The position numbers were made by a program, and so were the translations under genes. A stretch of 63,999 nt of DNA, the filler included, from Streblomastix strix (taxonomy: Eukaryota): assembly GCA_008636045.1 (NCBI GenBank). It is 4 parts of 4 records of this genome, joined end to end, with 100 filler letters (N's around TTAATTAATTAA, not from the genome) between each part and the next. Parts side by side here need not be neighbours in the genome. Positions count along the whole stretch, not along the records: positions 48,155 to 63,999 come from SNRW01000922.1; 3 more parts are not named here. One strand, given 5' to 3'. This document shows, one piece after another, positions 18,317-63,999 of this stretch. Positions within the stretch are counted from its first letter, which is position 1, and every line of letters begins with the position of its first letter. The notes under the pieces are model-generated. The model saw only the letters and a list, made by a program, of their open reading frames with translations, was not told the DNA's origin and made no database searches.

Positions 18317-18352
<36 letters not shown>

Positions 18353-29017: not shown

Positions 29018-29039
29018 TTCATTTACGAAAAATAAACAT

Positions 29040-31945: not shown

Positions 31946-32005
31946 AATGGAATTTACAAATCTACAACTATTATTGAATGTCTTATTTTCATTTATTGTC
32001 TATGA

Positions 32006-32105: not shown

Positions 32106-32941
32106 TTCATATGTGAGATTTAATGAGGACGACCTGGACCTGAAAAGTGGCGACTTAACATGCCAGAATAGATTCAAAATTAAAAGCATTTTGGACGACT
32201 AATTTCGATACGACTTGCAGGCAGTCTCAGAATTTTAGCTTCAAAATTTAAGAAAAGAGCTAGATCGTAGCAGATAGCAGAGACAGCCATGGATGCCAAA
32301 ATTAAATTTGTGCAAATTTGATATTAATCGGATGCTATTGATCTAATTGACGACAATCTGTAGACGCCAAACTCGGAGAGCTCGTCGCAATAAACGCAAA
32401 ATGCTTCATTGAAAATGTTCTAGAAGTAGACTAAAAAATAATACAGGAGTAAACCAAGAAGGATTTAGAGCTGGATATGAGTAAATGGAAGCAGATTAAT
32501 TATATAGACAAGCATTGGATCAATCAAGAAGCTATTTGATACAGTTGGACTGGAAATGAAATCCCAATTAAAATATAACAGAAGAAGACTGATAATTTAA
32601 TGTAATGATAATTTATTATAAAAATATGTTATTCTTCAAAATTTAGCAAGAATGAGTGATTCAACATTCCTTTTGAAGAAACGACAAACAACCATCGAAC
32701 GAATTTCTCCAGGTAGTGCAAGTGTCAACTAATAGTTGCAGTCTTGTCGCTCTCTCATTTCTCTAACTTTTGATTGCATTTTGAGCTAATTAAAAATATA
32801 ATATCAAAGATTATTTTAAATTTAGAAAAATAGACATATTTTAAAGAAATTGTGAAAAAATTATTAAGAACAATTGATCATAACAATTAGGCAAATTTAC
32901 ATAAAAATTAATCGGCAATCAATATATTTTTATTTTTCAAA

Positions 32942-36914: not shown

Positions 36915-37151
36915 ACGAAAGGAACCAGTTTTAAAAGTATACACATAAAGATAATAAATTAATAATACGAATAACCTTGTGCTCCAACTAAAGATACAAC
37001 ACTTGATGAATGTGGATGTCTGGAGAAAGATGATCCAAGAGCTGATACACTGTGCAAACCATGCGAGAAAGATTTTGTAGGCTCAGTACGTGCTGTTTTG
37101 AGAGTCATTATAGCAACTGTATTTTTCCCCGCACTGATATTTTGTGTGTGA
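36915..37151 (+). CDS. Terminal exon of a Cys-containing surface protein with hydrophobic C-terminus (TM/GPI-like); upstream exons not found
   Basis: After an AG acceptor: ..QPCAPTKDTTLDECGCLEKDDPRADTLCKPCEKDFVGSVRAVLRVIIATVFFPALIFCV*. Confidence 0.5.
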
Positions 37152-37498
37152 AATAAATGATGAAGACTACGCATATTTGAGGTGAACGCATATTAGAACC
37201 ACGTTCTTTTGTGATTTGAAGGAAACTTCAAACGTGTTATTTTTAATAGTAATAGTTTTATTCAATAGTTTAGAGTTAATATATTCAAATAAATTGCATT
37301 TTAATTTTTTTTGAAATTATTCTATATTAATTTGATTTTGAATTATTGATTTTTTAATATTTTGAGTATTTTTTAATTAAAAATTAAAGTGTAACAAATT
37401 GTAAAATATTTGGAATTTTATAGGTATGAATAATAAATTTATTAGTCATACAATTCATGTTAGTTATTAACTTGATATTATTTTCAAGTAGACAGATA

Positions 37499-42175: not shown

Positions 42176-42376
42176 AAATTATTAATATTTTGAAAATTTT
42201 TGATAATTATTTTAATTTTATTTTATATTGTTTTTGTAGCTTACTGTCAATTGATTTTTATTTGTTTTTTGATATAATTCATATTTTGATATAATTATTA
42301 ATATTTTTTGAGTAATTGTTGATTTCTTATTGAATATACAATAATTTTTATTGAAATTTTTCATTAATAAATAATA

Positions 42377-42735
42377 ATTTAATAAAGTGCAACACGAGAT
42401 TGAATTATCATCTCTTGTTTGATATTAACCTATTAATATTATATATTTTAATGTATTTCCAAACATTGTTTTATTAGTTAATATTATTTTCTAAAAGTGT
42501 ATTTCACTTTTAATTCTTGGATTAACCCAATTGTTTAATTTCATTTTTTTATATCTATTATTTTAATTGGTTTCAGTTTGTATTTTATTAAGAATCCTTT
42601 TTTACTATTAAATTATTTTTTCATGTCATTTATATATTTGAATATATTAATTTATATTTTTTTTATTTTGAATAATTTCCGTAAAAGAAGTTTCTATTTA
42701 ATTTTAATGTTAATAATTAAGCATATATTTTTTTT
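42377..42735 (+). repeat. Diverged copy of the cyclin gene 3' end and downstream flank (43808-44160)
   Basis: TTTAATAAAGTGCAACACGAGATTGAATTA.TCTCTTGTTTGATAT.. and the following ~300 bp occur at both sites. Confidence 0.85.
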
Positions 42736-43230
42736 AAATTTAATTGCACATGACAAAAAGAATAAGATCAAATTTTTACTGAATTACGTGATTATTTTAT
42801 TATTTAATTTGTAAAAAAATTTCTAAACATAACGAACATTACTATAAGATATATCAATATTTAAGATAATTGTATTTTTAATTTTAAAAATAAGGTAAAT
42901 ACACTGAATAAATATCACTAAATATAGAAATTTCTAATTTTATTTTAATGTTTTAAATTCTCATTAACAATTCATATTTTAATGTATACCATATTAAATA
43001 TACAATATAAATAAATCAATTTATAAGGAAAATGGTTATATAATGATCTATATGAATTTTAAGGATGAAATTATTTTGCTTTTTCATAATTTATTCTCTA
43101 CTCTTCCCCATGCTAAAAATTTACTATAATTTACATATTTTGATCTGAAAATATAAAATTATATTTAATTTAAACATTTTAATACACTTATGATTCTTAA
43201 TTTTCTTGATTTTTCAGACTTTGAACAATT

Positions 43231-43854
43231 ATGAGTGAAAAAGAGCTTATACGAATCCCTGAAACCGTGCAAGTGTTAATACCGTTGCCTATAATAGATA
43301 AAGATTTTTAAATAGATTCAAATAATATTAAACCAGAAGATATTATAAATATGGAACACCCTGCAACTAGCAATTTCATAAACTTAGCCGCGAGATATAT
43401 TACGAAGTTCATTTCTTCTATTATTTTCACGAAGGATAATTAAATTGAATATTAGAAGAAAGATGAGATTCTTTTTCTGAAAATCAAACATTTCTTCTCG
43501 TACATTCACGATTTTGTTCATCAGTCTGGGTCTGAGTTAATTCATACAATTTATTTGGTTCAGAGACTTATGGAATCAGAAGAAAAAGACTTTGATGAAC
43601 ATCAAAGTAGCATGATGATATCTGAAAGCAATTTGGGAACAGTTTTAATATGTGCTGCAATGCTTGCGATAAAGGTTCAACGTGATGTCATCGAATATAA
43701 AAACAGTTGGTGGGCAAAAGCTTTTTAAATTAAGTTAGAAATACTCAATCACAGTGAGCTTGCATTTTGCATTCAACTGAATTTCAGATTTGCCCTATCT
43801 GATTAATAGTTTAATAAAGTGCAACACGAGATTGAATTATTATCTCTTGTTTGA
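43231..43854 (+). CDS. Cyclin, PHO80/P-type cyclin-box protein (207 aa, intronless)
   Basis: ELIHTIYLVQRL..SESNLGTVLICAAMLAIKVQRD..YKNSWWAKAFQIKLEILNHSELAFCIQLNFRF. Confidence 0.8.
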
Positions 43855-44867
43855 TATCAAGCTATTAATATTATTAGTTTTCATATATTTCCAAACATTG
43901 TTTTATTGTTAATAATAGTTTTTAAAAGAGAATTTTTCTTTTAATAATTGAATTAGCACTATTGATTATTTTCATTTTAAATATCTATTCTTTTAATTGA
44001 TTTCAATTTGCATTCTAATAAGACACCTTTTTACTGTTGAATTATTATTTCATGTCATTTAAATATTTGAATATATTAATTTATATTTTTAATTTGATTA
44101 ATTTTCATAAAATAGTTTCTCTTTGAATTTTAATGTTTGTAATTATGCATATATTATTTCGATATAAATACACTTAATCTCTTTAAAATTCATTTTGAGT
44201 TTATTCCTTACTTCAATGTTTATCAGCGACTTTTCTTAAGTTTATAATTATCGGTATTCTACGACTCTTATCTTCCCAAGAATATCATCTTTTGTTTTAT
44301 AATTTTTAATTAAATAGGAGAATAAGCTTTAATTGAATTAGATTTAAACAGATCAGACTCCGAATATAATTTATGAATTTATTAACATCTATTAAACGCT
44401 TAAACTTAATTTTGGATAATATTTTATTAATTGAGTATTATAAACAAAAATAGTAGGTATTGAATTTAATCCATATCCTTTTTGAATGAAATAATTAATG
44501 TTTAAAAACCTAAAAATAAATTCAGATATCCGTTTTAGGGCCGGTCACCGTTTTAGGGTCGGACGCCCATACTGTCTTGAAATTGCTCAGCTATTCTAAC
44601 GTTTACTCAGCTTCATCAATTTTAGCTACATATCTACTGTCAACCAGTTCAGAAATAACTGCTGCTCTTTTGAAACGGCACGAATTCTGGAAGGAATGGC
44701 GGTAGCTTCTGTTGCTGCTACTGGCCTTGCTACGGTTTGTGCTTGAGTTTTTGATTCATAAGCATTGTTAGCTTTTCCAAATTCTTATTTAACATTTAAT
44801 AATTATATTATTTTAATAAATTAATAATTGAATTTAAATTTCAATTTAAAAAGTTAAAAGTACTCAT

Positions 44868-45235
44868 TGAAATTTCCCTATAATAAAGTATAGGGAAAAT
44901 ACCTATATTTCGAGATTTTGATAAGGGCAGCTTTTACTATGATTTCATATAAATTATAATTAAATTTGAATATATATTACATATATATATTTATTATGTT
45001 GATTGATTCATTATTAAGAAAAATATTACTAACAACAAATTAAAAAACTTTAAAGGCAGCTGATAAAAGCATACAAAATTAAAAGTTATATATCCAAAAC
45101 CCAACTGCCATCAGCCGATATCTCGCGTTTTCAACTACTATATGATTAACATATATATATATATATATTAAACAATATTTGATCATACTTGGTTGTTTCA
45201 GAAAGTTCGCCGGAGGGACTTTTTCCCGCTACCAT
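44868..45235. repeat. Dispersed non-coding repeat, homologous to 48155-48478
   Basis: Shared blocks CCTATATTTCGAGATTTTGATAAGG / CCTTATTTTTGAGTTTTTGAAAAGG, GCCATCAGCCGATATCTCGCGTTTTC / GCCATCGCCAATATCTCACGTTTTC and GACTTTTTCCC. A 10-bp hairpin TTTCCCTATA..TATAGGGAAA lies at 44873-44898. Confidence 0.65.
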
Positions 45236-45239
45236 ATTC

Positions 45240-48054
45240 GTTTATCTTCCTTTATATTTTGGATTCTTAGAAGGATGTAAGTCTCATTTATGGTCCAAAA
45301 CCTCTTTGCACTTTCAATTATTCCCCAGATGATAGTTAATTTAATATCACCATTCGCAATTTCTTAGTTTCATCTTCATTACAGTGGCCCTAAAGTTTAT
45401 TCATCATATTATTCATCATGTTTTTAAATTTTTCATTTTGCTCAGTATTATTGATGTATTAGACTTGTTTTCCTGTATATACTTTAATATTAACTTTTCT
45501 TTTAGGATCTTCTAAGAGAAATGGTAGATGATTAGCAGCTTGATTGATTGGGATATATTTGGATTATTTTACGCCATTTATGAGTTGATAGTTAGGGTCT
45601 ATAACGAATAGCGATTATTTCTGACTTGATTATTAATTTTATTTGACTTATTTTAGTGATGACGATGGTGATTATGATAGAGATAGTAAATAATATTGTT
45701 TAGTAAGAGAACCGGTCTTAGATAATGAAACTTAGTGAGTTAGATTAAGCAACCATGGCAAAGTTTATTTAGTTTAAATTGGACTAAATTCAGAAATATT
45801 ATTCAAATCATCACTTTGTTCTATTAACTGGAATTACAAATTACCAGGTGCTTCTGTTTTAGATGTATGGATTGCTTCTGGTTGGGTAGTTTATTCAGCT
45901 TTCTTATTTTAATTTTATTATCCATTCCTAGGAATGTCTTCTATTTACTGCTCAATGTTCTACTCCAAATCAATAACATCTACCTATTATCTCTATTCAT
46001 TTTATATGTTATTAACTGTGACATCCTGTTATTGAATTTGTAACATCTAACCATTGCGTTTATTCATTCTATTATTGCTATTGATGTTAACATTTTATTG
46101 GTGGATTTCTATTTTTCTCTATTGACTTCTTGAAGTTAGTTAATCTTTTACTAGATTTATATGTTCACTTGTTAATTCAATTATTCTCGATTCTCCTCTG
46201 CTGTGAGTAATTACTAAGCCGTTCGAAAGTTCGCAATAGGGATATATATTTCTAAGTTTATTGATTCTGGATTTGTCCACTAAGCACTGATCTCTTCGTC
46301 GAGACTTGGGAGAAATGATATATTTTCTACTAAAGGCTTCTTTTTTAGCTGTTCGTAGAGTTGCATTAAAAACTGGATTTTGAACTGTTCACCAAGCCTG
46401 TTCTCCTTCGTTGTATTGGACTCAACATTCCCTTAATAGATATCAATCAATCTCGAGATGAAGACCTTCAGCGCAATCATCATTATTCTATCCATTTCCT
46501 GAGCTTTCACTTGAAATCACTATTCTTCTTTTCCTGCCTCCTGCAAAGTCTAATTAAACATTGCTGTCGTTTCGCTCTTTTTAATGTTTGTGATTGTTGA
46601 CGTGATCATGGTCATCATCGTGGTCATGATGGTGGTGATGGTTATCGTCTTCATCTAATTCCATTCGTACTATATCCAGATATAGGTCTGTATCAACTTC
46701 TCTCCAAAATGCTTTCCATTCGCTAATTGTTAAATACTCATGTCTAGAACGTCTTTGAATAAATACATTGTCATTTTAGGAGGCCATCTCCAAATCCTCA
46801 ATAATGTTCCCCATTATCTTTTAGACCTAACCTTCTTAATATTTAACATTTCTATGCCCAAAAATCTCTGTTATCAATAAATTATTGATAATTAATATTT
46901 ATCGATAATTCCGGAGGGTTTACCTGAGTGAAGAGACTTTAATTTATCCCATATGTGCTCTCTTCGTTCAAAAATGGCTATAAATCTTATGCAATCATCC
47001 TTGTCAGGGCTGTTCCAGGTGATTCAAGTAATCGTCATTTTACGTATCTAGATTTGTTAACCTGGAATTATTGCTGCCGCACTAATGTAGGAGGCCTAAT
47101 TGTAGGTAAACGATTGTATTATTAATTTAATTAAATAATGTTCTAAATTTGGAAGCTAGATTGAAAATCTTAATTAGCCATTAATATTAGTGCTAATATA
47201 GTAAATAAGATCGATTATTAAGTTTATTACATTACAAATAATGGTTGGCTCTACATGAACAAAGGTAGACTTTCTTTGATGCTCAGCTATCTGTAAAATT
47301 AAAAGCTATAGCTTGAAGAAAGATGATCCTGCTAGAAAAGGCCTGACTAAGGGAAAACCTGAAATTATTGTATTGTTGAATATATGCCAAATCCTTGGAA
47401 TGGATATAATATCTATGTTCTTGGTATCAGCTGTCCTGAATAAAATTGTTGTATAATCTAAGTTGGTGTAAACGTCATCAGTTGCGGAATATATTGTACC
47501 GGTCCCATCGTGTTTGCGGAGTTTTAGCCATCTTTCGGGATTACTAGGTCCTGATTTCCTTATCCTTGTATCAGTCTCAACGCATGAAATGGTTGAATTG
47601 CGTTTGACACAAATCCATTATAGCCCGGAGCTACTTATTAGGCCCCTTAAGCGATTTCTTTCATCTGAATCAGGATATAAGTTGACCTTTCTGCGAAGCA
47701 TTGTAGTGCAGCATACATGCTTACTAGGTAATTAAATGTCTCTGTCGTATTCCATTTCAGTACATGTTGAGTCGATTGTATTGATAAAGTGTGTAATATC
47801 AAGATTTGAAATTAAAAATTCTGAAAATATCACTTAACTCGACAGTTCGCGGTGTAGTTGAGGATTTGGCGCGGTGGTATTTCTGCGAATTTAGTTATCT
47901 CTGAAGCTTGCAAAGTTCGCGCCTTGTAGTACCATACTTTCGCAAGCGCGATTGGATTCGCTCGAAAATCTTCTGTGAACGCGTTCCGTCCGATTAGCAG
48001 CTCCATGAATTTGATGATAAAAAAATGTATCTCCTGCATCAGAGATGTCTTCCT
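45240..48054 (-). mobile_element. Degenerate, intronless Gln-rich ORFs of probable TE origin (family not identified)
   Basis: Higher GC than flanks and long minus-strand frames under TAR=Q broken by TGA and frameshifts. No catalytic motif recognised. Confidence 0.3.
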
Positions 48055-48154: not shown

Positions 48155-48477
48155 CCTTATTTTTGAGTTTTTGAAAAGGCTAGCGATTATATTAATTATA
48201 TATTGGTTAACATCATATATGAACATATATAACATATATATACTTAATATATCCGACATATCTATAATTAAAAAGATTTTAAGGACTTTATATTTTTATA
48301 CCCCCCCCCAAAGCTTATAAAAATTTAAATTGTTCCATAACGCGAAGACTGGCCATCGCCAATATCTCACGTTTTCTTGTACTAATTAATATACATATAT
48401 AGATATATAAATAAAAAGTTAATCTCAAACCGTCGTTCCATAAAGTTAACCGCAGCGACTTTTTCCCAACATTATAC

Positions 48478-49215
48478 ATCAATAGAAAAATCCTTTGTAC
48501 AAATTACGTTAACCATTGAATTTTGTTATAATTTGTATGGACCCATGTTACAATAAATATGAAATCCGCCTCTTGCTTATTTAACAAGTCCAACATTGCG
48601 ATGTTAATTGTATTTTTCCATCAAGATTTCTGCATCTTCTGGATTTACATTGCAACCTTCAAAATCTTGTTGTTTTGCTGGTTAAAATAGTTTTGTTATT
48701 TTATTTCTTATCGTATCACGCTGTGTAACATCTAATTTCTCTTTATGATCAATGTCTATATCTATTACAGCCAAGTATTTGCATTCTGCAATCTCAAGAG
48801 TATGCCCCGTGCATGTTTTATTCTTATTTTACTTGATATATACTTTTTCCGATTGATTATTAGTTTGATATGATATCTTATTATAATTATGCAGATTGAT
48901 TGTCGCAAACTAAATTCTGTCAACAAATCTTTTTGATATTTCATTTTTAGAACGCTCTCGATATGATAAATCATGCGTTTTTGCTTGAAATGAACGATTT
49001 TCATTATATTTACGAAGATCGATGTAAAGATCTATTTATCGGTATTTTCCATGCGATTTATAGCCTATTTATTCATATAACGAAGGATTATCTACTTCCA
49101 AATTATAAAGTCCAGCCCGCGACAGTTAAATTTTTGTTTCATTTCTTGATTTTTCCCCGATTTATGTATCGTAACGGATATATCCGAGATTTGAGACTTT
49201 TTCTTATTTGTACAT
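48478..49215 (-). pseudogene. AEP-family primase-polymerase domain, truncated after ..DFSIDV by a repeat insertion
   Basis: KYLAVIDIDIDH (DxD motif) and VGLVKQARGGFHIYC (His motif). Frameshift near the 5' end. Confidence 0.75.
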
Positions 49216-49398
49216 TTGCCAATTTACTAAAAGTGACAAAATAAAAAATCAAATGTCATGAATTAATAATTAATTATGACAAAAATTAAAAATTAAAAAA
49301 TTAAAAATAAAAAATAAAAAAATTTAATAAAAAATCTTTTTTAATATTTCAATTATTTTTTACGATTCTGTCTTTTTTGACATTTTACCAAATCTCAA

Positions 49399-52300
49399 AT
49401 GACAGCCAGTTGACGCCGCAGACGACGTAATCAACGCCGATATTAGCCTCCGCAATCATAACCTCCAGTAAACAAGGCAAAAAACAATAAAAACTGCACA
49501 AATTATCAGCAGTTTTAACTGATGCGTGATTTGTTATCGCAAAAGCTGCGTAATCAACAGCAAATTCGGTAAGCTAAAAATGCGCCGACCAAACCGCCCG
49601 CAACGTCAACAAGAAATTAACCTAAAGAAACCGTCGAAAATTAATCTAGAAAATAGCGTCGCAAACTTTAATCAGAATCTGGCAAACAGCAAAATAAGAA
49701 ACGTAAATAACGTAAATCAACAAAAAAATAAGAAAAGAAATAGATGTGCGATTAGATGAACCGTGAAAATTACTTATCTTGAATATAACATTATGAACAA
49801 AGTTTAGATAAAAATTCTCGAGAAATTCTCAGGAAAAACTAAGTGTAAATTCAAGATCTCATCGATTAATAAGGAGACTCCGTTTTAGAACTAGTTTCTT
49901 CTGGCGATACCGAGTTTATGATATTATCTAAGCCGCTTAATATGTGTTTGCTTACTTAAGCAATTAATGAAGCAAGAACCCGAAACAGTGGAATTAAATT
50001 CGATTTTCATAATTTAACTGATACAACTGCAATAACTATTGATTTCTGTCATAATGATATCCATTAGCTGGAAGATATTGATAAATTCATTGAATATATG
50101 TATTCACATGAAAAAGGAAGATTTTTCGAATGTACTTTTGACTTTGATGTCAGTAATGAACATAAAGAAATGCCAGAAAACATGAAGGAATTACTTAAAA
50201 ACAAGAAATTTATTCATAAACTCTAATATTTTGACGGGCGTTACTTAGTTACTTATAGAATTAAACTTTCTGATAATAATTTCAGTTAATTACATGCTCC
50301 AATAATTCACTTCGACAGAAATTCAATCGATATTTTCAAACAATTCGTACGTTTATCAATTTTATTTATGTAAGAGATCGGAGAACTAACTGATACAAAG
50401 GAATTGATTGTCGCAATCTTTTCCATGTAATTTACATCTAACAGACTACCTTTTCCAGGCAAATATATGGAAGAATTGATTAAAATTCATAAGAAAAAGA
50501 ATATTATCAAATATATAGATACTGACGATGATTATAACATCTGTTTCTAGTATAATATAACATGCGTAACTATACCTGATGCGAAAAACGTGAAAATTGA
50601 TAGACATAAACGAATTGCAGTAGGTAAACGTTTGTTATTTTCCTTTTGCGGAAATCCAGAACAAAATTAACGTAAATTTCTCAAAGAATATCGAGGATTT
50701 AATTGAAATGATGCAAATTAAGTTGCTAAAAAATTCAATTTAAATATCAATTATTATGAATACGTCTGCAAAGGATTCGAAGATGATATTTAAAAACCTA
50801 AATATTAACGATTAATTTAATATCCTGATATATAAGTTGAAGGACGAAAACCTTATAATATTCTCTTATTAAATGATAATATTGACAAATAACATATTAT
50901 ATATATTATAAATATCGAGAAACTGATTGGCTTACTTATTTGTACAATCTGCAATAATCAAGCAATCTATGCAATTGATGAAAATAGACATGTTTAACGC
51001 AAAATGGACGATTATCTTAAAGAATTCATGATGAATCTTGGAAATTCAAATAAATAAATAAGATTAGGGAAGTTTCCAAAACCATTTTTACCGCATATTA
51101 CATCGAATTAAACTTATAAATATCATCTTCCACACAATCGATTATACGAATATAAACCAACATAATATTGTATAATTTTTCTATTTTACTCACTATTTCA
51201 ATAAGATGATGAAATAAAATTCCTTTTAATCAAACATATTTCTGTTGCATCGGTAACTAAAACAAAGTTAAGAATAAATAGATGCTATTTTGTATGTAGC
51301 GATGCAAGTTTCATAGATTGTAGGTTTGATTATCTATTTACATATGCAAATTAGATTAAAATCGATAAAAAATACTCTGATGAGGTACCATAACGGTATG
51401 AAGTATTTGTTATCGGATTTGATTTGCAGATAACGTTAAAGACATTGATTTTCAGAAATCTTCGATCGAAGAACTATGAAATTGTCGATTTTGTTGTGCA
51501 AGCATCATCTTCTAAATATTTTATAGTAAAACCAATTGAAAAATATCTAGAAATCATGATAAAAACAAGATTAAAACGTAATATCCATTCGTTTTATGTT
51601 TCTTGATGCAAAGAACTATTTAGTTGACAATATTTCCTTTGCGAAATTCATGGAGGACGTTGGTTAAGTTAACTTTTAAGAAAATGATAGCCTTAAGGCC
51701 GGCAATGGAATTGCTATTCTCGAATAATCAAAATTGATAATAAATTCCATCGATATTTTAATAAATCTATATTTCAAAAACAAAATTGACTTATTAACGA
51801 ACATTTCACTTGCAGAACTTGCTTGTCTTGAAAAATATTTTTATGTTTATAAGAATTTTGATATAGATTACTCTTTAAAACGCTAACGTATTTAATATGC
51901 ACCATAAATCGACGAGCAAACATTCAATATAACAGAGAAACAATAGAAATATAAAGTGGAATCTTATAAAAAATTAGACAAACTAAAAAAATGACGAACA
52001 GATCACAATATATCTGATTATCATCTGAAATATTTTCAAGATTTATTCATTTCTTCTTGTTGTCACATTTGTAAAACAAGATTTGTTTATAAAAATCTGC
52101 GAACTATTGACAGAATAGATAATGAAAAATTACATACAAAAAACAAACGTTAAGCCTTGTTGTCTTTACTGCAATAAATATGCGTCAAAAAAAGATAAAA
52201 ATCTATGTCGATTTACGATCTAATAACGTTAATTTACATAACTTAATCATCTAGCAATGATTATTTCTGATTAAGATGTTTATAAAATCTTACGGAACTG

Positions 52301-53795
52301 TATGATAGGAGGAAATTCGTACGTTATGCTCAGAGAAAATATTTTTTGATTAATGCCAATTAACAAATTTAAATATAATTCTCCAGATAAAACAGTTCAT
52401 TCCATCAATTTGCCCCATATCCTATCGCATATATCATGTTTTGATTTCAATTCCTTTTATCCTTCAATAATGAGTTCAAATTCGCATTTTCTGATTCCAT
52501 ACGCAAATCATAAGATGTATATGCCTGGAGATGTAACTTCAGTAACTAAAGATGAATACAGAGCAAGATAAATAATTTATAATGAAAATAAATTCTCTTA
52601 CGATGAGGATATCATCGAAAACAAGGTTTAATTGTTCATTGCAATTGTTAAAGCTCAAATTCCAGAAGAATTTATCAATGAATTTATGGATTTTCCTGTA
52701 AATTGGTGTTATCTTAAGATAATATTGAATAAACGAACCGTCGGGGAATATATTTATAAAAATTTTATTGAACATCACATGGCATGCGATAAAGAAGAAT
52801 CAAAATTACTTATGTTATTGTCGACGCATAATGAATTCATAATTTTTACCAATTAATACTTATAGTTTCTTATAGATAGATGCCATCTTGTTATAGATGA
52901 AGTACAATAAATTAATACATAAAGTAAAAATACTTCATTTCATGAATTCGTCAATGAAACTCATAAGTATAGATGTGATGTATTAGCTGCTGGAAATTAA
53001 AACCTGGAATTAATGTTTAAAACAAAACTGAATGCATCAATTAGTTATGACACATTGCATACTGAGAAATTTTCAGATATTAAGATATGATACAGATAAA
53101 ATCTTGGAATGTGCCATATGCTAAATATATTTAAGTAAGAAAGAAATTAAACTGATAGTTTTTCAATTGTTGAGTTAGAATAGAGGTAATGTTAATACTC
53201 CACATCGTTTTAAGTTGCTTATTTCGTGATGGATAATTCCAAATATTTTTATCTTAATAATTTCAATACTTTTCTTGTTCCATATCTTGACATGAATAAA
53301 ATACATGTAATTTATGGTGATACAGACAGTTTATGCTTAGAAATCGCAGATAAAAATTTGCCAATTCTGTACAAAAAATTATTGAATAAATTTTATCACA
53401 AATTTTTCCAAATTTCAGATTAAATTCATGAAATGAAGATATTACTTGGTTTGAATATTGAACATCAAGTAATAACTTGCTTTGCTTTAGTTTCTAAGTG
53501 TTATTATTCAGTTACATAAGATAACGGTGAAATATTGAAGCTAAAGGGGTTTAATTAGTTGCAAAATTCCAATATTTTACGGAATTCTTTTATCAAAAAT
53601 ATTTATGATGATTATCGCACTGAATTAATATGGAAATTTGTAATTCAAAAATAAGGTTTAATGTCAGAAGTAATATTAAATCGTGTTAGAATTAACGGAA
53701 TTAATACAAAAACAATAGTTCTTAAAAATCAGTCATGCGCACCTCTGTTGTATGGAATTAAAGATGGTAAATATATAATTGATGAATCGCTTTGA
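49399..53795 (+). pseudogene. Protein-primed family B DNA polymerase (Polinton-type)
   Basis: Motif A CFDFNSFYPSIM, motif B FKTKLNASISYD, motif C IYGDTDSL, then SKCYY and KLKG. N-terminal DYNICF..HIIY and CxxC; endonuclease VII-like insert. Many frameshifts and TGA stops; start approximate. Confidence 0.92.
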
Positions 53796-53854
53796 ATGAG
53801 CAGCTTTTAATCCGTCATTTATTATCTTAAATTATTTTTGCATAAACTTATAAA

Positions 53855-55034
53855 TGAATGCGCAAACATAGGGGAAAATAACATAATGGATCGAATATAT
53901 CGCATATCGTAACATAAATCAAATAAGATTTTAAGAGTTTACTAATAATTTAAATAATTAAAATCTCGGAAATTCAACGAAAAGATGCTTGAGCAATTAT
54001 ATAAATAGTACATATAAAAACATGATTAATCAAGTGATGCAAGATTGCAAAACAAACCTAGGTTGCATAGTTAAAAAAATGCTTCTGAAATAGGAATATA
54101 AACAGATTTATCCATTCAAATCGAAAGTTTAATATAATATAAGAAGACTCATGGTGAAATACCCCAAAAAGGACAAGAAATTCCTTCAGATTATTAAATT
54201 AAACCATTAACTAAGTTAAATCGTCCATGTTATTCTCCACAATTCGGATATTGGGAAATCGACTTAGTATTTTCAATGGATGAACGTATAGTTCGAGTAA
54301 ATTTAATCTATTTGTTTTGCATTAAGATTAACACAAAATATCTCGTAGTTTTCCCATTGAGAGATAAATCTGCAGGTTAAATTAAGAATGCATTGTAAAT
54401 ATTGGTTAAGAATTACAATGTTACGAATATCAGGGGCGATGGCGAGAAATGATTTAACGGAAATATATTGAAAACATTCTGTTAAGAGAATAATATTACT
54501 TCATTCTTTACCGATTCTAAATTTACAAATCATAACAGAGTTGTAGATTCAGTTATCAGAACCATTCGCAATGGATTTAGAAATGATTATGGGAAGTCTG
54601 CAGATAACGATATAATGCAATAATTGATATAGATGTATAATTAGACTCCTCATTCTGCCTATGACAATAAATTTACACCGGAATAAGCCAATTCTAGTCA
54701 TGATATTCAAGGAATTTACATAAGATAATAGTAAAATTAGCTCTTTGAAATCAAAAAATAACAAAAGAAATAAGGACTTATGTCAATCTCTCAGGGAAAT
54801 ATTCTTATGATTCATCTTGATTATTCTAAAACAGGGCATCAGGTCGTTAAATAAAGAAGAAATTTCAATGAATTAGCCTAATTCATAAGAAATTCGAATG
54901 GAATTGTGGTTGCTAAGTTAATAAAATTATATTCTGATGTGAGTGTTATCGAATTACCTGCATAATATTGCAAATTGGTAGCAAAAGATATAAGTTAATT
55001 AGATTAAAAATATTAATAGTATTTCAAAATATGA
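53855..55034 (+). pseudogene. Retroviral-like (rve) integrase of Maverick type; in-frame TGA ~54450
   Basis: WEIDLVF, YLFCIKINTKYLVVFPLRDKSA, IRGDGEK*F, HNRVVDSVIRTIR, YNQTPHSA..TP. Confidence 0.88.
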
Positions 55035-56236
55035 GATCTGCGAAAATAGAAATTGTCTTATTATAAAATAAGCATATTGAAAAAATGTAAAATTCTACAA
55101 AATTCGCTGATTCTAAGGAGATAATCGTCACGATTTAAATATAAAACAGAAGAAGTACTTAAAGCTGATGAAGTTAGCCTTAAACGTGCATGTGCAAAGG
55201 AATTACTAAAAATGAAAGTTTATCGATAATTTGCACCTGATTCTTAGCAATATTTAAAAAATAAATTGAAAAAATTGATTGAAAACAGTGAAGTTTACCT
55301 TGGTTTATTGCATTAAATCGTAGATAAATACGATGAAAAGGATAAGAAAATAATGGAATTTGCAAATATTTGTTGATTTGAAAGAAGCTGTTTAATAAAA
55401 ATTAGATAAAATTAAAAAAAAAATGGTTTTTAGACATAGATTTTTCACCAAACGAAGTTTGGCGACGAGTAACGCAGTCTCCATAAATCTTTTTCATTAA
55501 ATCGTATTTCAGGAATTTCTTCTTATGGTTAAGTAACTTAATCTTATGGCGGAGTTTATGATTGAAGTTATTAATCTTCCACTGATCTCTTTTACTTAAA
55601 TATCTTTATTTTTTCGTTATACTTTTCAACTTACTTTATTGAAACAACTAGTAATATACCTTTAAATGCAGTAATATATGCGACTAAATAATCTAGTAAT
55701 CTAATAATATGGACTAAAGTAGTTGCTATTGATTGATGTATTAATCCTAATGATAATATTATAATTAATATAATGTGTTAGTTTTGGTTACCGGATGATT
55801 TTGCTATTTAGGTTTGTGTTTCATATGCTATTCATAATTAATCGGCAAATTGAAAAATATTCACTTCATGATTAATCAGTTAAAACTGAGCGACTGGAAA
55901 GATTGTCGAAATCCGTTCGGTAAAATGAATTTATTAAGCAGCAATAATTTTAATTATCATGATTTCTATTGTCGTCAGACTTCGTGTAAGTTTTAAGATT
56001 CAATAACTTTAAATACAATAAATATCTCCACAACTTTACAAGTTCCTCATCTTATTTTTCTATGGCTTCCTTAACGAAACACTCTATTTTTTCATTTGAA
56101 TACTTGGACAAATGGAAAAAACATGCGTAATTATTTGGTTTTTCCTTATTATCCATCTTGTTTTTGTTTCTCATTCTGTAAACAAATTAGAATATATAGA
56201 TAAATATATTCAATTGCACTAAAAAAAACATCAAAA

Positions 56237-57460
56237 TGACTCCATAATTACTTTATTAATGAGATTATTTATGTAAGTTATTCAGGAATAGATTGTGAAC
56301 GTACGGATATTATGAAGATAACACCATAAAATTTAGAATTAATTATTAGAAATAAACAGATTCAATTGGCAACTGATAGACCTGCAAGACGCTATTCGAG
56401 ATATAATCAGTTACATTTTACGATAATTCTATGCTAGAAGAATAAAAAACCAAATAATTAATCAGCAATTCATTATTCTTAATCTATGAGAATCATTATA
56501 TTGTTCATGATGTAGATTCAGGGAAAACAACATTATTAAGTAAATTAATTGTAATATACAAATAAAGAATTAATCGTTTCATTTTATATTTCTCCAACTT
56601 TGGTGCTGATGAGACTATGGCATTGAATCTAAACTCGAAGAATATCGTGTTAACCAACATAACATATGAGGAAGCAATATATTTCTAAACATAATTTGAT
56701 CTTATCAAATATTCGGTTAAAGAAGTCTATATTAATTAGAAATTACGCGAACTAAACATATCTTACAAATCAGATTATTTATAAAGAATGAAAGAAAAAA
56801 ATATTCAAAATAATCAAATTAAAGAAATTACAACTCGTCTTGCATCCGCATCAATCGAGAAATAAATGAAAAAACCAAAAGATTATGCAAGACGAATTGC
56901 TTAGATATTTGAATAAGAATGTATAGATAAAATAACGAAATATTGTGTTCCGGCAATGATTATGAAATTTACTATTCCAGCAATCATTAATTGTTTGTAT
57001 TTCGAGAGGAAATTATCCATTTCATAAGATAACGAAGATGCTGTGTTTAAAATAACAAAATTCCTATAATATTTCATAGCTCACTGCTGAATTCGCTGTT
57101 ATTTTCTAATGATATTCGAAGCAATGCTGATATATAAAGATTCTTTTCTGGTTTAGCTAAGACAATAACTCACTTAGTTTCCGAAAGTAGACATAGCTAA
57201 AATATTGTTTTCTTTGTTGCTTAACGCCCAAATTACTTGTTCAAAACAGCAAAAATATTATCACACGTAATATGTTCGAGTGTTAATCTTAGCGAAAGAG
57301 ATTTAAAGCAAGCATATGAAGAAAATTCTATTCGGAATCCGGATTTTGATAAATTTATGTTAGTGCAAGGTACTCTTACCAAGTATGAATTCACAGTGCT
57401 TAATAAGTGGTTGAGTAAATATATATCTTAAAGAATGAATGAAAATTTACACATTATGTT
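56237..57460 (+). pseudogene. A32/FtsK-HerA-like packaging ATPase with a long insertion between Walker A and B
   Basis: SGKTTLLSKL (Walker A), LLFSND (degenerate Walker B), ESRHSQ (Arg finger), FFVAQ(TAA)RP (Gln sensor). Frameshifted. Confidence 0.75.
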
Positions 57461-57699
57461 TCCCTTTTGTATGACTTCCAAATGACGTTGGCTAAAACTT
57501 TGAGTTAACAACAGATATAAGTAATATGATCTTTTATATAATCTAATTTCTAATATTTGATATAATATTCAAAGAAATCATCAATTGCAAGTAGATAATT
57601 ATCAGGAAGTGAATATTAATTGAAAATTGATGATTAAAACTCATTAATATATGCAATAATAGGCAATGTTTTGAATTAAGCAATGAAACTAGATACTAA

Positions 57700-59700
57700 T
57701 GGCGTTATGCCATTAAAAATATAATTTTATTAAATAATGAATTCATAGGTAAAATTACTACATTTGAATAAAAAGTTAATGTATTATAATAGACATTGGA
57801 AATTGTAAAATAAGATATTAATGGTTTGAAAAAATAAATTAATGTGAATAAATGAAGAACTTAATAAATAATCTCATTTTAGAGGATACTATTTATTGAA
57901 CAAAGATATATAATAATTAGAAAATTCTGCCTATGGTAATTTTGCTTTCTCAGCTGAAAGTGGTACTGTATGGATGTATGATAACTGTTGGTATAACAGT
58001 GGAGATATAGTTCCTGATCAAGTAACTCCGGCAAGTGATGCTAAAACATTAGTTGATAGTGGAACTGAAGTTACAGGAACCTCAACTGAGTTTTTTAGAG
58101 GAGATCATTCACATCCTCTATAAATATCTACTGTATTACCAAATAAAGATACATCAGTTGGTACTGTTGGATAAGCTAGTACCTATGCTATATCTGACCA
58201 TTAACATCCAATTTGGACTGCAGATACTAATCAAATTAGTGATAAAGTAGATGGATCATATGGTACAGTTGAATCATAAGCTCGAAACGATCACTCTCAT
58301 TCTATTAATGTCTAAACTAATGCTTCAATTGTATCTATAGTTAATGGAGTTGGAAATAATAGTACTTCAGTATATTATTCAAGACATGAACACATTCATC
58401 CGTAATAATTGACTTATGACGGAAATGTTACTGCAACTAAATTCATTAAATCTGAAGGATTAGCAACAGAAATTTTTTACGCTAATGGTGATATAAACAC
58501 AATAGATAGTAAATTTTCAAGAACATTTAACGCAAGCGCAGGTGGATGGGTTAGATTAAGTTTATTTCCTGCTGGAGCAAGTGTAGGTAATCCATTCATT
58601 GAATTTAAAATATATACAATGTATAATGCTGTTCAAACCATCAGATTGGTGTCTTATTATACCGTTAATGGAATCAATACTATATATGGCATATTTACAG
58701 CTCCAACTAAGGATAGTGCTAAATATGTTATAGAAAGTGGAGTAAGTTAGCTATTTCACACTCAAACTGCATCAAGTACATCAGCTATTTATTCAGCATA
58801 TGTTAGAATAGAATCAACTAATTCCCTTACGATAGTTGTATCTGATTAAAGCACCTATTATACAAATAGAATCATGTAAATATTAATATAAGATGTAGTT
58901 ACTAGAGTATCAAGCGGTACATTAAAACGAATTACTTATGATTTAGTTAATGGTGGAATAATAAATAATATGCTATAAATTAATACAATAGATCGATCTT
59001 AAACTACATATAATAATAGTATTAGATTCGAAAATGACAATAGTGATACAACATCTGCATTATTGTTAGGATGTGCAACTACAGTTATAAATACTGCTCA
59101 AGTCTGTCAATGGGAAATATGTAAAACAAGTGATAGTGCATTGACAATTAATCCATCATTTCCACAATAAGTTGATCAAAGTGTTGGATTAAGTATTAAT
59201 AGTGATAGTTCAATAATAAAATTTAATGGTAATGAATTAATGAATATTGGAACTGATTAAACAATTTCTGTTAGAAAGGCATTCAAAAATTACTAGTTTG
59301 AGATATGACCAACTAATTTAAACTATCCAATAATTTTATTCAGTAACATTCTGATTCTAAATTAGTCACTAATTATGTTAAAAATGCTGGTATATCTTCT
59401 TCTTTGCTGGTGTTACTTGTGGTAATATTCAAACAAATCCTACAATAGTATTATATGGCGAAAAACTATGAATAGCAAACATTGCTATTAATAGTCTTTG
59501 TGCGATATATATTGGAATTTCTCCTATCAGTTCATCTGGTTAGATTGTTATTGATTGTTGTGTTAAAGTTAATTCTGATCTTATGAATCTCAGTAATAGC
59601 ATTTAATTTATAAGTTCCATCACTATTAACTGATTATTCATAGAATTTTCGTGAAGGAGATGATGTTAAGTTATGTTCTATTTCAAGATAGTCCTAATTC
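57700..59700 (+). pseudogene. Phage tail fibre-like protein with HxH repeats; main open frame ~57870-59308
   Basis: Coiled-coil-like N-terminus, then RGDHSHP, ISDHQHP, RNDHSHS, SRHEHIHP, followed by DGNVTATKFIKSEG and beta-rich domains. Confidence 0.7.
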
Positions 59701-60426
59701 AGATAATAAGTAAAATTAATAGGCACATTGTGTAGAGAATTAACTTAGAATGAACTACAACCACTAGAAATAGATGTTTTCCATTAAATATAGTCGGAAT
59801 TGGAGTTAGAATAGATGATATGCAATTGTAAAGATGACATTTCAGTAATTTCAAAAACAAATTTATCATCACTCATCACTTCAGGCAAAGCCTTCAGCAA
59901 CAAAGTTGCTTTTCATTGAGAAATTATATATGTTTCAACGATGCTTCTTATCCACTAACATCTTATGCAAGCTTAATTATATCCTTAAATTATTCCATCT
60001 TAAAATGCTTATTATATTATTTTAAGATGAATCTTAAATCAATTTCAGGATCTGATTTAGTGGCAAAACAAAATATTGAATTTAAGAAATTAGAATAAAC
60101 AAGAAATTCCTCAACTGTTATATGCATTTAACGTTTCGATGAATAAAAATTTAACAATATTATTCACGAAGAATTTTTACCCAACAATGTAATAATTTAC
60201 TCAGCAAGCAATTTGCAAGATGAAACGAGAATAAAACTATCTCATGTAATTGGTTATTTGGTTAATATCGGCAAACTGCGTTTGATACAACTAACGTTGT
60301 GTTTGTTTATAATTAAAACAAATGCAAAAGAAAAGGAAAAAGAAACATTTATTCGCTGAATCAAGTGATTTCTTATAGGAGCATCTAAGCAATCCTTAAT
60401 AGAGATAACAAATATAATCAAAAAAA

Positions 60427-61260
60427 TGGATAAAGATAAATAAATAAGTAGAAATGCGATCCTACAATAGTGTCAAAAATACTTACTATAATGTTAGCTA
60501 TTTGAAGAAAATTAAGGAAAGGAATGTCAGAAGCAGAAAAACGTGCATTTGAAAAAAAAATTCGTAGAACAAATACGTCAATAAGACCAATTGATGCAAT
60601 TGCTGCAGTGTTGGGATTAACAGATTGCAGAGCGCGTCGAATAGTTTCGATGCAGGTTTTCCCAACAATTTATTGTAAGATTTATACGAGACTGACATCA
60701 GGATAAACAGCGAAGGAAGATTAGTATAAGAAAATTTTGTGGAAAATGCTGTAGATATGAGGAAAACATTAATGCTAGAATAAATTAACCATCCATGAAT
60801 TTAAGATCACGAAGACCAGTTGTAACAAAAGAATAATAATTAAACTAGCTTGTGAACTTTGGAAGTCCAAGACAGAAAGAATAAGAAAGATAATTGCTAA
60901 ATCAACAATTTTCTACAGAATCTTAAGAAGATCTTGGAAAAACTTCAATGTTTTAATAATAACCTCCAGAAATAACAGTTGCATAAGAAAAGTTAACTGA
61001 AAAATAACATAAAGCAATTTAGAAAGATATTCTTAAATAAGAAAATTAGAATACATTCGATGATATTGGTGCTTTAGACTAGGGTGGACCACCAATCATC
61101 GATATTTACAATAGATATCCTTGTGAAACCCATAAAATAAGCTATAAATGCGATGCATTAGAAAATCCATTAGCGGGTATGAAGATAGATACTCCAGTCG
61201 GAATTAAGAAACAAACAAAAATGAAGATAAACTACATTCAAACGTCATAGTTAATATCTT
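60427..61260 (+). pseudogene. Hypothetical viral ORF(s)
   Basis: MSEAEKRAFEKKIRRTNTSIRPIDAIAAVLGL.. and later DDIGALDQGGPPIIDIYNRYP..; intronless and frameshifted. Confidence 0.4.
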
Positions 61261-61375
61261 CATCAACTGCAAATGAGAAATTTGCATAAAATCTATCTGG
61301 AATACCCAAAAATAGAAAGTTAAAAAATGAAAAAAGAAACTCCCAAACTTTCCCGTTAAAAAACCAATCTGCATT

Positions 61376-63733
61376 ATGGGTGTTTTTTTTTGCGGAAAAA
61401 AGTCCATTTTTCCGCAGATTCAAAATATTGAGTTGCGGAAATCCCCATAAAAAATTTTTAAAAAAAAATAAAAAATTTTGTTTTAAATAATTTGTTTAAA
61501 ATATGTTATTTTTCTAATAAAATAATTATTATTATGTGAAATATAAGAATGAATATTTGTTTTTTTATGTGAATGCTGAAATTGAAAAAAATATTTTACA
61601 TCCATTTATCACCTAATAGATACAATTTTTGTTTTGAAAAAATATATTATTTTAAGTTTAACAATCATTTTATAATATTTTGATAAATTTTATTCATATT
61701 TTTCTGCTTAAAATCACATCATAAATTTGTGTACTTTATATTAACATGGTTGTCATATACTTATTATAATTAAATAATAAATTTAGTTTAATTCAACGAT
61801 TGAGTTATTAATTTTATTTAAAATTTGAAATATTTTCATAGATTAAAATAATTTATTTTTAAATTTATAACAATTCAATACAATTTAATTATTTTTATTA
61901 ATTTTATAAATGTTTAATAAAATTTAATTAGAAACTACTGAAAATTTCCAAATACTAACAATAAAGAGAAAACGCGATCCTCCATTGTAGCCAGTTCGAG
62001 TATAAAAGAAGGAATGTTTAAATCTTTGGAATTATTATTCTACTTTATACAAAAGAGATTAAAATTGTATAATTTATTTTTAGTTTCTCATTATTTGACA
62101 ATTTTATTTTTTAGTATGCATTCTTAAGCCATCTACAAGTAGATAATAACAATTCTAACTAAAAAAAACCCATTTTTCGTCATTTTAAATTAATTTATTT
62201 AAATTATATATATTATTTTAATTTGAATTTTTTTCAAATTATATTATTAATAATAATAAAAATATATAATTCTTAAATATTCATGAATTTATAAATATTT
62301 TAATTTATTGATTTAATAAAAATAAATATTAAGTCATAATATTCATTAAAACTAAAAAATTCTAATAAAATTATGTTTAAATGAAACCAATCTTGAAAAA
62401 AATAATTTTGAAACAAGTTCGAATTTTCATTATTACTTTGAATCTACAAATAATATTGAAAACAATTAATATAAATTAATATAAATTATATTATAATATG
62501 TTCATTAAAAGATAAAAAATATCAAACCAGATTCATTCCAGTGTTTGTTTCGATCAACATGAAATTCATGTAACTATCTTTTGTACAAAAATTCTCCAAA
62601 TTTATCAATGTTAATTAAATTTCTTCTTAATTTTGCTAAATCAGATACACTTGCCACATATGAAGTCAGTTATCGTGATAATTTCTTTGTTGTTATCCGG
62701 TTCTCGACATCTTAAGCAAATTGTTCATATTACAATATAAGGAAAGGTGTACATGTATTCTAATTAGTATATCAAAAATAAGTAAAGAATCTCTAAAAAA
62801 ATATTTTAGCAAACATCAATATCAAAGCAAAATATTTTCACTTGATGCTCAAAAAATGAAGATTTGTTTTCGTAACCTTTCATCTGTGCAGCATCTACTA
62901 ATATATATGAAAGAAATCCACTGATTTAGTCTATCGTACTAGGCGCAGGCCCTCCACCACATGATCCTTTTGTATGATTTTACTAATTCTATCTTTGATA
63001 ATTACTATTCTGTTGTTATTATCGACTACTTGGTTGACTGCTTAGACGAATATTCTATAGCGTTTATCTATTACCATGCTATGTTAACTACCTTGGCGAT
63101 TGATATAATAGTTTTACAGTCACAATATAAACGCTGAATATATCTGAAGTAAAATTATTCCAATATCATAAAAAATATATTCAAATTAAAATCAAATATC
63201 TATAATAATGAAATTATTAATTGAAAATTAATTAAAAATCTATTAAAATTATGTAATAACGAAATAATGAATTGGATTATTATTTTTTTTTATTTTGCAT
63301 TTTTACATTTATAAAATAGGTACAATGAAAAAAATACAACAAAAAATTGTTAATATATTTTGTAAAAGATTAAACATTGAGTTGCCATTATTATTTAAAC
63401 AGAAATTAGTGGAAAAATACAGTTTTAAAAAATAAAGTAAATTTTTGAGTAGTTGTAATAATAAATAGATTTATCGAGTAAATATATCTTAATATATAAT
63501 AATATTAATTTAATTTTATGAACAGATTTAAACATATACTAATAGGTCTTTGAATTTTAATTAGAATTTAAAAAAGCCTTAATTCTAGAAGCAGCAAGTG
63601 CGGATAAAAATAAATGTAAAATTTCGGGTAAATATATATTATATAATAATATTTTGTAGTTAGATTTAATCCGCATTTCCTTTTGCGGATCCGCTCGCAA
63701 TTGCCAAATTTTTTCCCGCAAAAAAACACCCCT
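61376..63733. mobile_element. Mutator-like (MULE) DNA transposon, internally deleted
   Basis: TIRs ATGGGTGTTTTTTTTTGCGGAAAA / TTTTCCCGCAAAAAAACACCCCT and a perfect 10-bp TSD AATCTGCATT at 61366-61375 and 63734-63743. Confidence 0.85.
62510..63145 (-). pseudogene. MULE transposase fragment
   Basis: LYCDCKTIISIAKVVNIAW, SVDFFHIYQQMLHR and FGEFLYKRQLHEF..HWN resemble the MULE D..(C/D)xFH..Q core. Disrupted. Confidence 0.55.
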
Positions 63734-63999
63734 AATCTGCATTATGAAATACAAAAATTCATAACTATTATTTTTGAAAATCTATTTTAAAATAGTAACT
63801 CCAAAAACACTAATTTTAGAAACGAAATCTTAAAAATATCATATAGTCCTTAAATTTTGGAACATGCTTGGTATTTTGTTATATCGGCCAATATCCCTCG
63901 ATCCCTTTCTAAATTTCACCTACTCCTCATCAGGCTCATCAGTTACTACCACATCCTTTAATTCCGATTTTCATCATCCCTATTACCGTTTATCCCCAA

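Follow-up and report, generated by a model that had tools for sequence, protein, structure and literature searches.

A decayed, recoded Polinton/Maverick-like element, probably of the oxymonad Streblomastix strix, with primase, polymerase, integrase, packaging ATPase and fibre genes

One contig of the stretch of DNA analysed here (63,999 nucleotides, four contigs with N spacers between them; hereafter the window) most probably carries the decayed remains of an integrated Polinton/Maverick-like DNA virus that is present in many copies and reads TAA and TAG as Gln. The host is likely the oxymonad Streblomastix strix, or one closely related to it, and likely a protist of the termite gut. We hold the element's assignment to the class of Polinton/Maverick-like integrated DNA viruses with high confidence. 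All five genes considered are confined to contig 4 (48155-63999, 15.8 kb), where their motif positions were re-located. An earlier note on this DNA had recognised the five genes on one contig by their motifs, had named the same class and the same code, and had proposed an anaerobic gut protist as host; these claims stand, and close relatives are proteins named for S. strix. The note was silent on decay, whereas every one of the five genes is broken or cut in this copy. The contig 4 element is a real but dead copy, incapable alone of any of the steps proposed below. Its features are:

48161-48467, no strand assigned: piece of another repeat, abutting the primase gene (matches 44908-45227 of contig 3 at 66% across 325 columns)
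48427-49215, minus strand: AEP primase-polymerase domain, the first third of a truncated primase-SF3 helicase gene (three S. strix proteins match it at 77-78%)
49498-53795, plus strand: family B DNA polymerase, likely protein-primed (72-77% like P0127 and 37% like the front part of P0134)
53886-55034, plus strand: retroviral-type integrase with D-D(35)-D spacing and a single stop, at 54450 (acid spacing, weak rve_3 match)
55035-56250, plus strand: short broken ORFs, one beta-rich (55494-55847), none reaching the cut-off of a Pfam or PHROG family; many related contigs cover the segment
56377-57482, plus strand: packaging ATPase, likely of the A32/FtsK-HerA type (59-79% like the front parts of P0007, P0017 and P0050)
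57488-59546, plus strand: fibre with a coiled-coil front, four HxH repeats, a beta-sandwich and more beta repeats (454 relatives)
59838-61340, plus strand: two or three ORFs, none capsid-like (capsid comparison, family scans)
61349-61416, no strand assigned: possible right end, richer in GC and holding a 26-base palindrome (beyond it G+C drops from 0.28 to 0.21)

Genetic code and replication genes

Under the standard code, a single ORF of at least 150 amino acids was found across the whole window. In frames supported by homologs, the five genes held 140 TAA or TAG codons and 7 TGA codons among 2888, and off-frame reading gave 179 TGA in 5760 codons. The contig 4 genes are readable only with TAA and TAG as Gln.

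The polymerase gene is interrupted by five stops (49780, 50704, 51992, 52347 and 53088) and two frameshifts (near 51570 and 52140), and its motifs follow in order: A at 52443, B at 53019, YGDTDS (motif C) at 53313 and KxY at 53493. It matched Pfam DNA_pol_B at E 5e-5, just under the cut-off. Against a profile of five phage pPolBs it scored 15.2 bits, a value reached by none of 200 shuffles; on the same profile P0127 scored 17.9 bits and the T4 polymerase 5.0, with shuffle maxima of 4.7-7.8, and a further relative, P0129, did not stand out from shuffled sequences (10 of 200). Comparison with phage pPolB profiles by hhalign was not significant (probability 3%), DNA_pol_B_2 did not match, a PDB sequence search returned nothing, and named phages gave only matches at E 0.3. 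All eight named protein matches were from S. strix. A DNA-pattern search for motif A produced one locus, L009, which was unrelated by tblastn. The exonuclease motifs, read by eye only, appear to be gone, and an alignment of the exonuclease domain was not significant; whether proofreading has been lost is, on these motifs, an even call.

The primase carries a DxD motif at 48762, GGxHxY at 48570 and a third Asp near 48480, and the three acidic motifs were invariant across 33 alignment rows. The predicted structure of a relative, P0124 (77% identical), matched prim-pol structures with Z 9.4 and rmsd 3.7 over 159 aligned residues. The AEP primase named by the earlier note is confirmed in its three catalytic motifs and, through the model of P0124, in predicted fold, but what remains here is a primase-helicase gene cut off after its front part. 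Full-length relatives, Monocercomonoides included, are primase-SF3-helicase fusions, and DUF5906 was present in 19 of 27 relatives scanned, the more distant ones. The helicase part is missing from the contig 4 primase and from its three closest long relatives; all three long matches were S. strix proteins. In a tree built from all rows of alignment A3 without an outgroup, the contig 4 primase grouped with S. strix and Monocercomonoides proteins (99/96), part of that clade being named. Homologs of the primase cease to align at the repeat piece 48161-48467, which, judged from the alignments, likely truncates the gene.

We somewhat favour the view that primase and polymerase belong stably to one element. 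The main rival, less probable though far from negligible, is that the primase-helicase came from a neighbouring insertion or a mobile replicase and that sister copies use either a primase or a PolB. It runs opposite to the polymerase and sits at the edge of the contig, and no second primase-polymerase pairing was seen among the 14 named primase relatives and 8 named polymerase relatives, which are small samples on short contigs. Nor did any contig among 14 primase and 119 fibre relatives, again short, pair a primase with the contig 4 type of fibre; in P0125 the primase is joined to a second fibre type. Polymerase relatives are far fewer than fibre relatives (8 versus 454, with differing length windows), and the part of 10.64898/2026.10.13.758929 available to us (section 13) describes tandem insertions and extra AEP genes. 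Against this rival, the primase and polymerase starts lie less than 300 bases apart with no repeat or end motif in between, and each of the two genes shows about 77% likeness to its closest relatives in S. strix. The accessible portion of PMC7845603 also places both a primase gene and PolB in Trichomonas Mavericks.

Integrase, packaging ATPase, fibre and capsid

The integrase has its three Asp residues at 54261, 54438 and 54546, the second and third separated by 35 residues. The rve_3 family aligned to the region of the third acid at E 0.028, short of the library cut-off; one relative bears the UniRef name 'Integrase catalytic domain', and a PDB sequence search gave no match. The ATPase has a frameshift near 57058 and decayed Walker A and B motifs. 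Its R..hhhhQRP stretch aligned to a PRD1 P9/Bam35 profile with a score reached by 5 of 300 shuffles (2 of 300 for its relative P0007). The Walker A half did not score against the tectivirus profile, and no family of the Pfam and NCBIfam libraries matched the ATPase at cut-off.

The fibre is broken at its front and tail and open from 57848 to 59305, with its HxH repeats at 58097, 58193, 58283 and 58382. Relatives numbered 454 among 7331 candidates, and 119 of the best 120 were from S. strix. The fibre was 40% alike over 75 amino acids to a gut-phage protein of locus L002, and proteins of both L001 and L002 match it; the repeats found no match in PHROGs or named phages, and Atlas leads for them all stayed below 0.9, with two bacterial/viral clusters at 0.80. 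As a monomer, the fibre was modelled poorly by AlphaFold (pLDDT 42), and the best structural match of that model (Z 9.6, rmsd 3.9, 127 aligned) covered the beta-sandwich only. As a homotrimer it scored 0.70, compared with 0.00 for the best of three controls. In calibration, 21 of 30 solved pairs but none of 23 single chains came up to the mark, and three copies lie outside that calibration. The trimer runs agreed in at least 88% of contacts with pLDDT of at least 70, a pass that may come from the predictor's memory. The fibre is predicted to be a phage-type homotrimer.

The statement of the earlier note that this contig bears no MCP agrees with our comparison: the capsid protein of contig 2 gave only two chance-level matches on contig 4 (E 1.3 and 3.0). 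PHROGs and NCBIfam scans returned nothing at cut-off, and no cysteine or adenovirus-type maturation protease family was found in the contig 4 ORFs scanned, the element being incomplete. The note had proposed a search for terminal repeats, target duplications and the MCP. The search did find an MCP gene, but on contig 2, where it adjoins a different fibre and by eye corresponds to the S. strix MCP of PMC10120064 Table S3. No terminal inverted repeats or target duplication bound the genes on contig 4, whose left end is lost. The right-end candidate at 61349-61416 has a weak inverted match to 63710-63736 (32.8 bits, compared with 31.0 for the best of 100 shuffles) and no matching left end on the contig. 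Classic Polinton ends read AGTAGT/AGAGAG; these were not at plausible places on contig 4.

A capsid gene was probably present in the intact subfamily. It is unlikely that the subfamily has none of its own and is non-autonomous or transpoviron-like, borrowing the capsids of a capsid-bearing family, or is now particle-less. Such an element would fit the 13 kb of contig 4 without a capsid gene, and the contig 2 capsid gene with its different fibre, there being no protein-level match between contigs 2 and 4. It fits less well with the packaging ATPase and fibre that contig 4 retains, and a capsid gene could have lain in the left part that was cut off. In addition, the published MCP tag EZS28_022745 is three tags from the fibre tag EZS28_022742, by tag numbering only, and 12 of 119 fibre predictions start with a small amphipathic gene like the neighbour of the contig 2 capsid gene, a weak likeness (2.6 bits).

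Gene order in other copies

The earlier note had made much depend on synteny in other copies, and this was borne out in part. The polymerase was joined to the integrase in 3 of 8 predicted proteins and the ATPase to the fibre in 3 of 119 predictions, and EZS28_004615 (fibre) and EZS28_004617 (polymerase-integrase) lie on contigs of equal size (17,851); the primase beside the polymerase did not recur among the few copies checked. In run X1, 3939 contigs fell on all 30 bins of 49783-60400, of which 2968 were less than 95% alike. Summed contig depth was higher from integrase to fibre than over the polymerase; contig depth is no copy number, so this difference was set aside.

It is very unlikely that repeats were joined into this gene order as a chimera during assembly or amplification. 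No single related contig spans the stretch, in three runs that amount to one sample, and at the left end the sequence passes abruptly into another repeat, but the same neighbours recur on other contigs and the four plus-strand genes are co-oriented and nearly abut. We dismiss almost entirely the idea that a bacteriophage or plasmid from the bacteria living with the protist was binned with the host: the fibre repeat does have phage relatives, but TAA and TAG are needed as sense codons, relatives lie on megabase Monocercomonoides contigs, named phages gave no match and many copies are decayed.

Scans for copies with flanks confirmed none, in viral contigs for the integrase (27 stretches), capsid (104) and polymerase (30), in metagenome contigs for the fibre (363) and primase (20), or in prokaryote genomes for the fibre (29); nine primase stretches in viral contigs yielded no locus. 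These blanks carry little weight because the scans need exact peptide patterns.

Proposed working, known relatives and meaning

In an intact element, the D-D35-D integrase would insert the element. PolB would copy the linear genome from its ends, with the polymerase's N-terminal domain acting as primer, as it does in other Polintons. Unwinding would fall to the primase-SF3 helicase, which may also re-prime; this would suit a polymerase that seems to have lost its proofreading acids. The ATPase would drive the genome into a double-jelly-roll capsid whose gene lies in sister copies, and particles would bind a surface through the trimeric fibre.

S. strix elements of the Polinton kind and their recoding are already known. 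The accessible part of Bellas 2023 (PMC10120064) reports S. strix endogenous viruses that use TAA/TAG as Gln, as the host does, and a 'Metamonada' MCP group; its Tables S1 and S4 enter 820 for S. strix, which we read as MCP hits. That group shares the likely host and code of contig 4, and its MCP is on contig 2, but the S. strix data seen there are capsid counts with no gene map, and contig 4 itself has no MCP. Table 2 of PMC7845603, in the portion available, annotates Trichomonas vaginalis Mavericks with a primase, PolB, an integrase and a tail-fibre-like structural gene. Contig 4 differs in having no KilA-N gene that we saw and in using TAA/TAG as Gln; no Trichomonas protein was among the named search matches, and 10 further relatives are nameless. 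Since the first paper covers S. strix elements and the second a similar gene set, calling the element an undescribed system, as the earlier note did, was an overstatement.

Compared with the canonical Polintons of groups 1 and 2, as far as the accessible text of 10.64898/2026.06.19.733378 describes them, contig 4 has pPolB, rve integrase and packaging ATPase in common and differs in that no cysteine protease was found and the third integrase acid is Asp. In that comparison AEP-SF3 normally replaces pPolB, unlike on contig 4, where it accompanies it. According to the parts seen of 10.64898/2026.10.13.758929, AEP replicases usually pair with tyrosine recombinases and not DDE integrases, which counts against our main reading. 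Mavirus-type virophages, as presented in the available sections of 10.1101/2024.03.18.585575, likewise combine a pPolB without a working exonuclease with a separate SF3 helicase gene, if our by-eye motif reading is right, and section 10 of that source has exonuclease loss accompany helicase gain. The DSLV2 virophage (PMC12724248) and MELD viruses (PMC8502044), in the passages available, are small eukaryotic DNA viruses with tail-fibre-like proteins, as here; the DSLV2 fibre is a heterotrimer like T4 gp37, whereas on contig 4 a single gene encodes the fibre, which has four HxH repeats and is predicted to form a homotrimer.

In our literature search, Streblomastix appeared with Polintons or endogenous viruses only in PMC10120064, and Monocercomonoides with Mavericks nowhere. 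The gene map, the D-D35-D integrase, the His-x-His fibre and the apparently lost proofreading motifs had no counterpart in the literature searched. A bolder reading, which we consider improbable, is that oxymonads host their own Polinton lineage midway in a change of replicase, with a pPolB whose proofreading domain is dead beside a primase-SF3 helicase, and that a gut-phage-derived fibre docks on host-coating bacteria and so moves the virus between protists in the termite gut.

The oxymonad gene map provides a second lineage beside Trichomonas for metamonad Polintons, which the 2026 classification, in the text available to us (10.64898/2026.06.19.733378), left ungrouped and could not place. 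If proofreading loss and the pairing with a primase-helicase are both true, the element would be an intermediate in the exchange of exonuclease for helicase that has been proposed for these viruses. Should the fibre bind bacterial partners of the host, the hitchhiking route suggested for a virophage would extend to a gut symbiosis.

Gene content and coding of contig 4

The contigs of the window are mutually unrelated and separated by N spacers (1-15953, 16054-32005, 32106-48054 and 48155-63999). Contig 4 (15,845 bases) matches in length the contig on record for the window's own fibre protein; it is therefore complete in the window, and it carries the whole five-gene set, consisting of a primase, a family B DNA polymerase (PolB), an integrase, a packaging ATPase and an HxH fibre. 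The earlier note had read these five genes as a Polinton-like virus, and both the gene observation and the class were correct. When the standard code was used, a single ORF of at least 150 aa was found across the 64 kb. The homolog-supported frames of the five genes contain 140 TAA/TAG and 7 TGA per 2888 codons, and off-frame there are 179 TGA per 5760 codons. In the fibre alignment, the Gln share was 57% in TAA/TAG columns (419 aligned residues), 47% in CAA/CAG columns (219) and 2% in other columns; since the homolog sequences themselves come from translation in this code, the test is partly circular.

With the fibre as query, 454 of 7331 candidates matched, and the best 120 were 119 Streblomastix strix proteins and the window's own protein. 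All 8 polymerase matches and all 3 long primase matches were also from S. strix. Contig 4 DNA was matched in one run, a termite-gut metagenome. S. strix itself or a near relation is thus the likely host. Sequencing run X1 gave 3939 contigs over all 30 bins of 49783-60400, mostly less than 95% alike, and is possibly the window's own source; it lends no independent support. Judged by these sequences, the contig 4 element is a member of an old, diverse repeat family.

Polymerase and primase

Polymerase homologs align along 49498-53795, through five stops and two frameshifts. Motifs A, B, C and KxY come in the right order and can be aligned with five phage protein-primed polymerases (pPolBs), and the same alignment covers R..GG ahead of motif A and LG.W..E behind motif C. 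With a profile of the five phage pPolBs, the window polymerase scored 15.2 bits and its S. strix relative P0127 17.9 bits, and none of 200 shuffles was as high for either; for comparison, T4 polymerase scored 5.0 and P0129, another S. strix protein, 2.4. Although a profile-profile comparison of the window polymerase with phage pPolBs gave no significant match, the motif alignment and profile scores suggest that the polymerase is likely to be protein-primed.

The expected sites of exonuclease motif I (ITF-L/R-F-N/Q-T) and motif II (IGFD-S/C-LK-T/S) lack the catalytic acids in P0127 and P0133, two S. strix proteins that are 42% alike; these sites were read by eye against the expected Polinton forms, as the domain gave no program alignment. 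The polymerase is thus possibly proofreading-dead, and this putative loss matters because Krupovic et al. (10.1101/2024.03.18.585575) couple exonuclease loss to helicase gain. A zinc-finger-like insert was also seen by eye, and a Cys/His pair, likewise read by eye, may represent a vOTU domain. Contig 1 carries a piece of the same polymerase family at 1-920 (minus strand; 60% to P0133).

The primase gene is cut short, and the ORF stops where a piece of another repeat starts (66% to 44908-45227). This piece resembles the end of a repeat on contig 3.

49215 to 48427, minus strand: primase ORF, 77-78% to three S. strix proteins
44900-48054, minus strand: contig 3 repeat whose long ORFs reach the cut-off of no Pfam family

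A profile search found 74 primase relatives. Across an alignment of 33 rows, both motif I Asp residues and the third Asp never varied, and GGxHxY was almost invariant. A structure model of the S. strix relative P0124 (pLDDT 74) matched prim-pol structures (best Z 9.4, rmsd 3.7, 159 aligned). Of its top 15 structural rows, 13 were titled primase, prim-pol or LigD-type polymerase domain and 2 were replisome chains with polymerase alpha; viral primase-polymerases headed the Foldseek list. A DUF5906 helicase was present in 19 of the 27 relatives scanned, one of which is a Monocercomonoides 'putative Poxvirus D5 protein'. The unrooted tree grouped the window copy with S. strix, Monocercomonoides and one ENA protein (14 rows, only some of them named; 99/96). 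The model, the DUF5906 relatives and the tree placement therefore identify the window primase as the front part of a D5-like primase-helicase, which seems to be native to oxymonads. Primase-helicase relatives of the P0163 and P0198 clusters lie on 10-16 kb contigs in ENA and Logan assemblies, and these contigs could be intact relatives.

Integrase, ATPase, fibre and gene linkage

The integrase, with one stop in the gene, has its Asp residues at 54261, 54438 and 54546, the last two 35 residues apart; the third Asp is present in P0131 and lost in P0132, both S. strix proteins. The ATPase has a frameshift and worn Walker motifs, and its R..hhhhQRP stretch can be aligned with the packaging ATPases of PRD1 and Bam35, scoring modestly above shuffles.

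HxH triads bind metal in T4 gp37. The window fibre has four HxH repeats, and among its 119 best relatives a simple pattern found four in 40 and three in 34. A fibre-like protein occurs on two viral contigs, L001 and L002 (40% alike across 75 residues). On L002 its gene is read as lying after tail genes and before an endolysin; a family search of its neighbours gave no match. Residues 1-320 modelled in three copies scored 0.70, the best control 0.00; the interface ran along the repeats, at least 88% of contacts agreed between runs and pLDDT was at least 70. In the calibration, 21 of 30 solved pairs but none of 23 single chains attained the score mark; three-copy models fall outside that calibration, and among eukaryotic proteins lacking a solved relative just 1 of 7 passed. 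The pass may be a memory of phage fibres.

Linkage was judged from predicted S. strix genes that extend through neighbouring ones. Polymerase-integrase fusions were found in 3 of 8 predictions and ATPase-fibre fusions in 3 of 119, and one fibre and one polymerase-integrase, with tags two apart, are each on a contig 17,851 bases long. The core order polymerase-integrase-ATPase-fibre is supported. No shared contig was found for primase and polymerase (14 vs 8 proteins) or for primase and HxH fibre (14 vs 119), and in P0125, an S. strix protein, the primase is fused to a different type of fibre, namely that adjoining the capsid gene on contig 2. The earlier note had recognised no major capsid protein (MCP) on contig 4; a search likewise found no capsid gene there, nor a protease or clear ends. 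The primase and a capsid gene are candidate members of the element beyond its core.

26832-32005, minus strand: second Polinton remnant, on contig 2
30796-32005, minus strand: its different fibre
29449-29900, minus strand: its head-like ORF
28790-29020, minus strand: its small amphipathic ORF
26832-28572, minus strand: its frameshifted capsid gene, matched by eye to the S. strix MCP of PMC10120064 Table S3

A 263-base direct repeat (98% alike) lies at 16054-16316 and 23162-23423, the latter copy sitting at the remnant's far end. On contig 4, a weak inverted pair at 61373-63736 flanks 2.3 kb of AT-rich DNA and is perhaps a small transposon. The window also carries:

2700-6434, minus strand: four units, each of about 827 bases and nearly identical, that encode a repeat protein; this protein also occurs at 18113-20372
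16448-17962, minus strand: ORF read in the host code, whose Peptidase M15 domain scores above cut-off (E 1.7e-6)
21115-22857, plus strand: host calpain gene (E 7e-20)
43225-43854, plus strand: host cyclin gene (E 4e-8)

Peptidase M15 proteins are bacterial or phage cell-wall peptidases, and the gene at 16448-17962 was possibly acquired from bacteria.

Relation to published elements

In PMC10120064, S. strix capsids fall into a Metamonada group together with Trichomonas, 820 are entered for S. strix, and the S. strix elements use the host's code. For Trichomonas Mavericks, Table 2 of PMC7845603 gives primase, PolB, integrase and a structural gene resembling a tail fibre, a repertoire very similar to the contig 4 one. 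Among other sources, 10.64898/2026.06.19.733378 leaves metamonad elements ungrouped, and 10.64898/2026.10.13.758929 places AEP mostly alongside tyrosine recombinases, with two replicases in some genomes. Phage-like fibres are described in a virophage (PMC12724248) and in MELD viruses (PMC8502044), and the accessible portions of PMC3671162 and PMC11296320 hold nothing further on S. strix. No gene map of S. strix elements was found in the literature searched.

The proposal that this is an undescribed system thus holds for some of its parts only. The contig 4 copy is dead, and the existence of the family and its recoding are already published (PMC10120064). The undescribed features are its D-D35-D integrase and HxH fibre, the gene map as a whole, and a polymerase, possibly proofreading-dead, that lies beside a primase-helicase.
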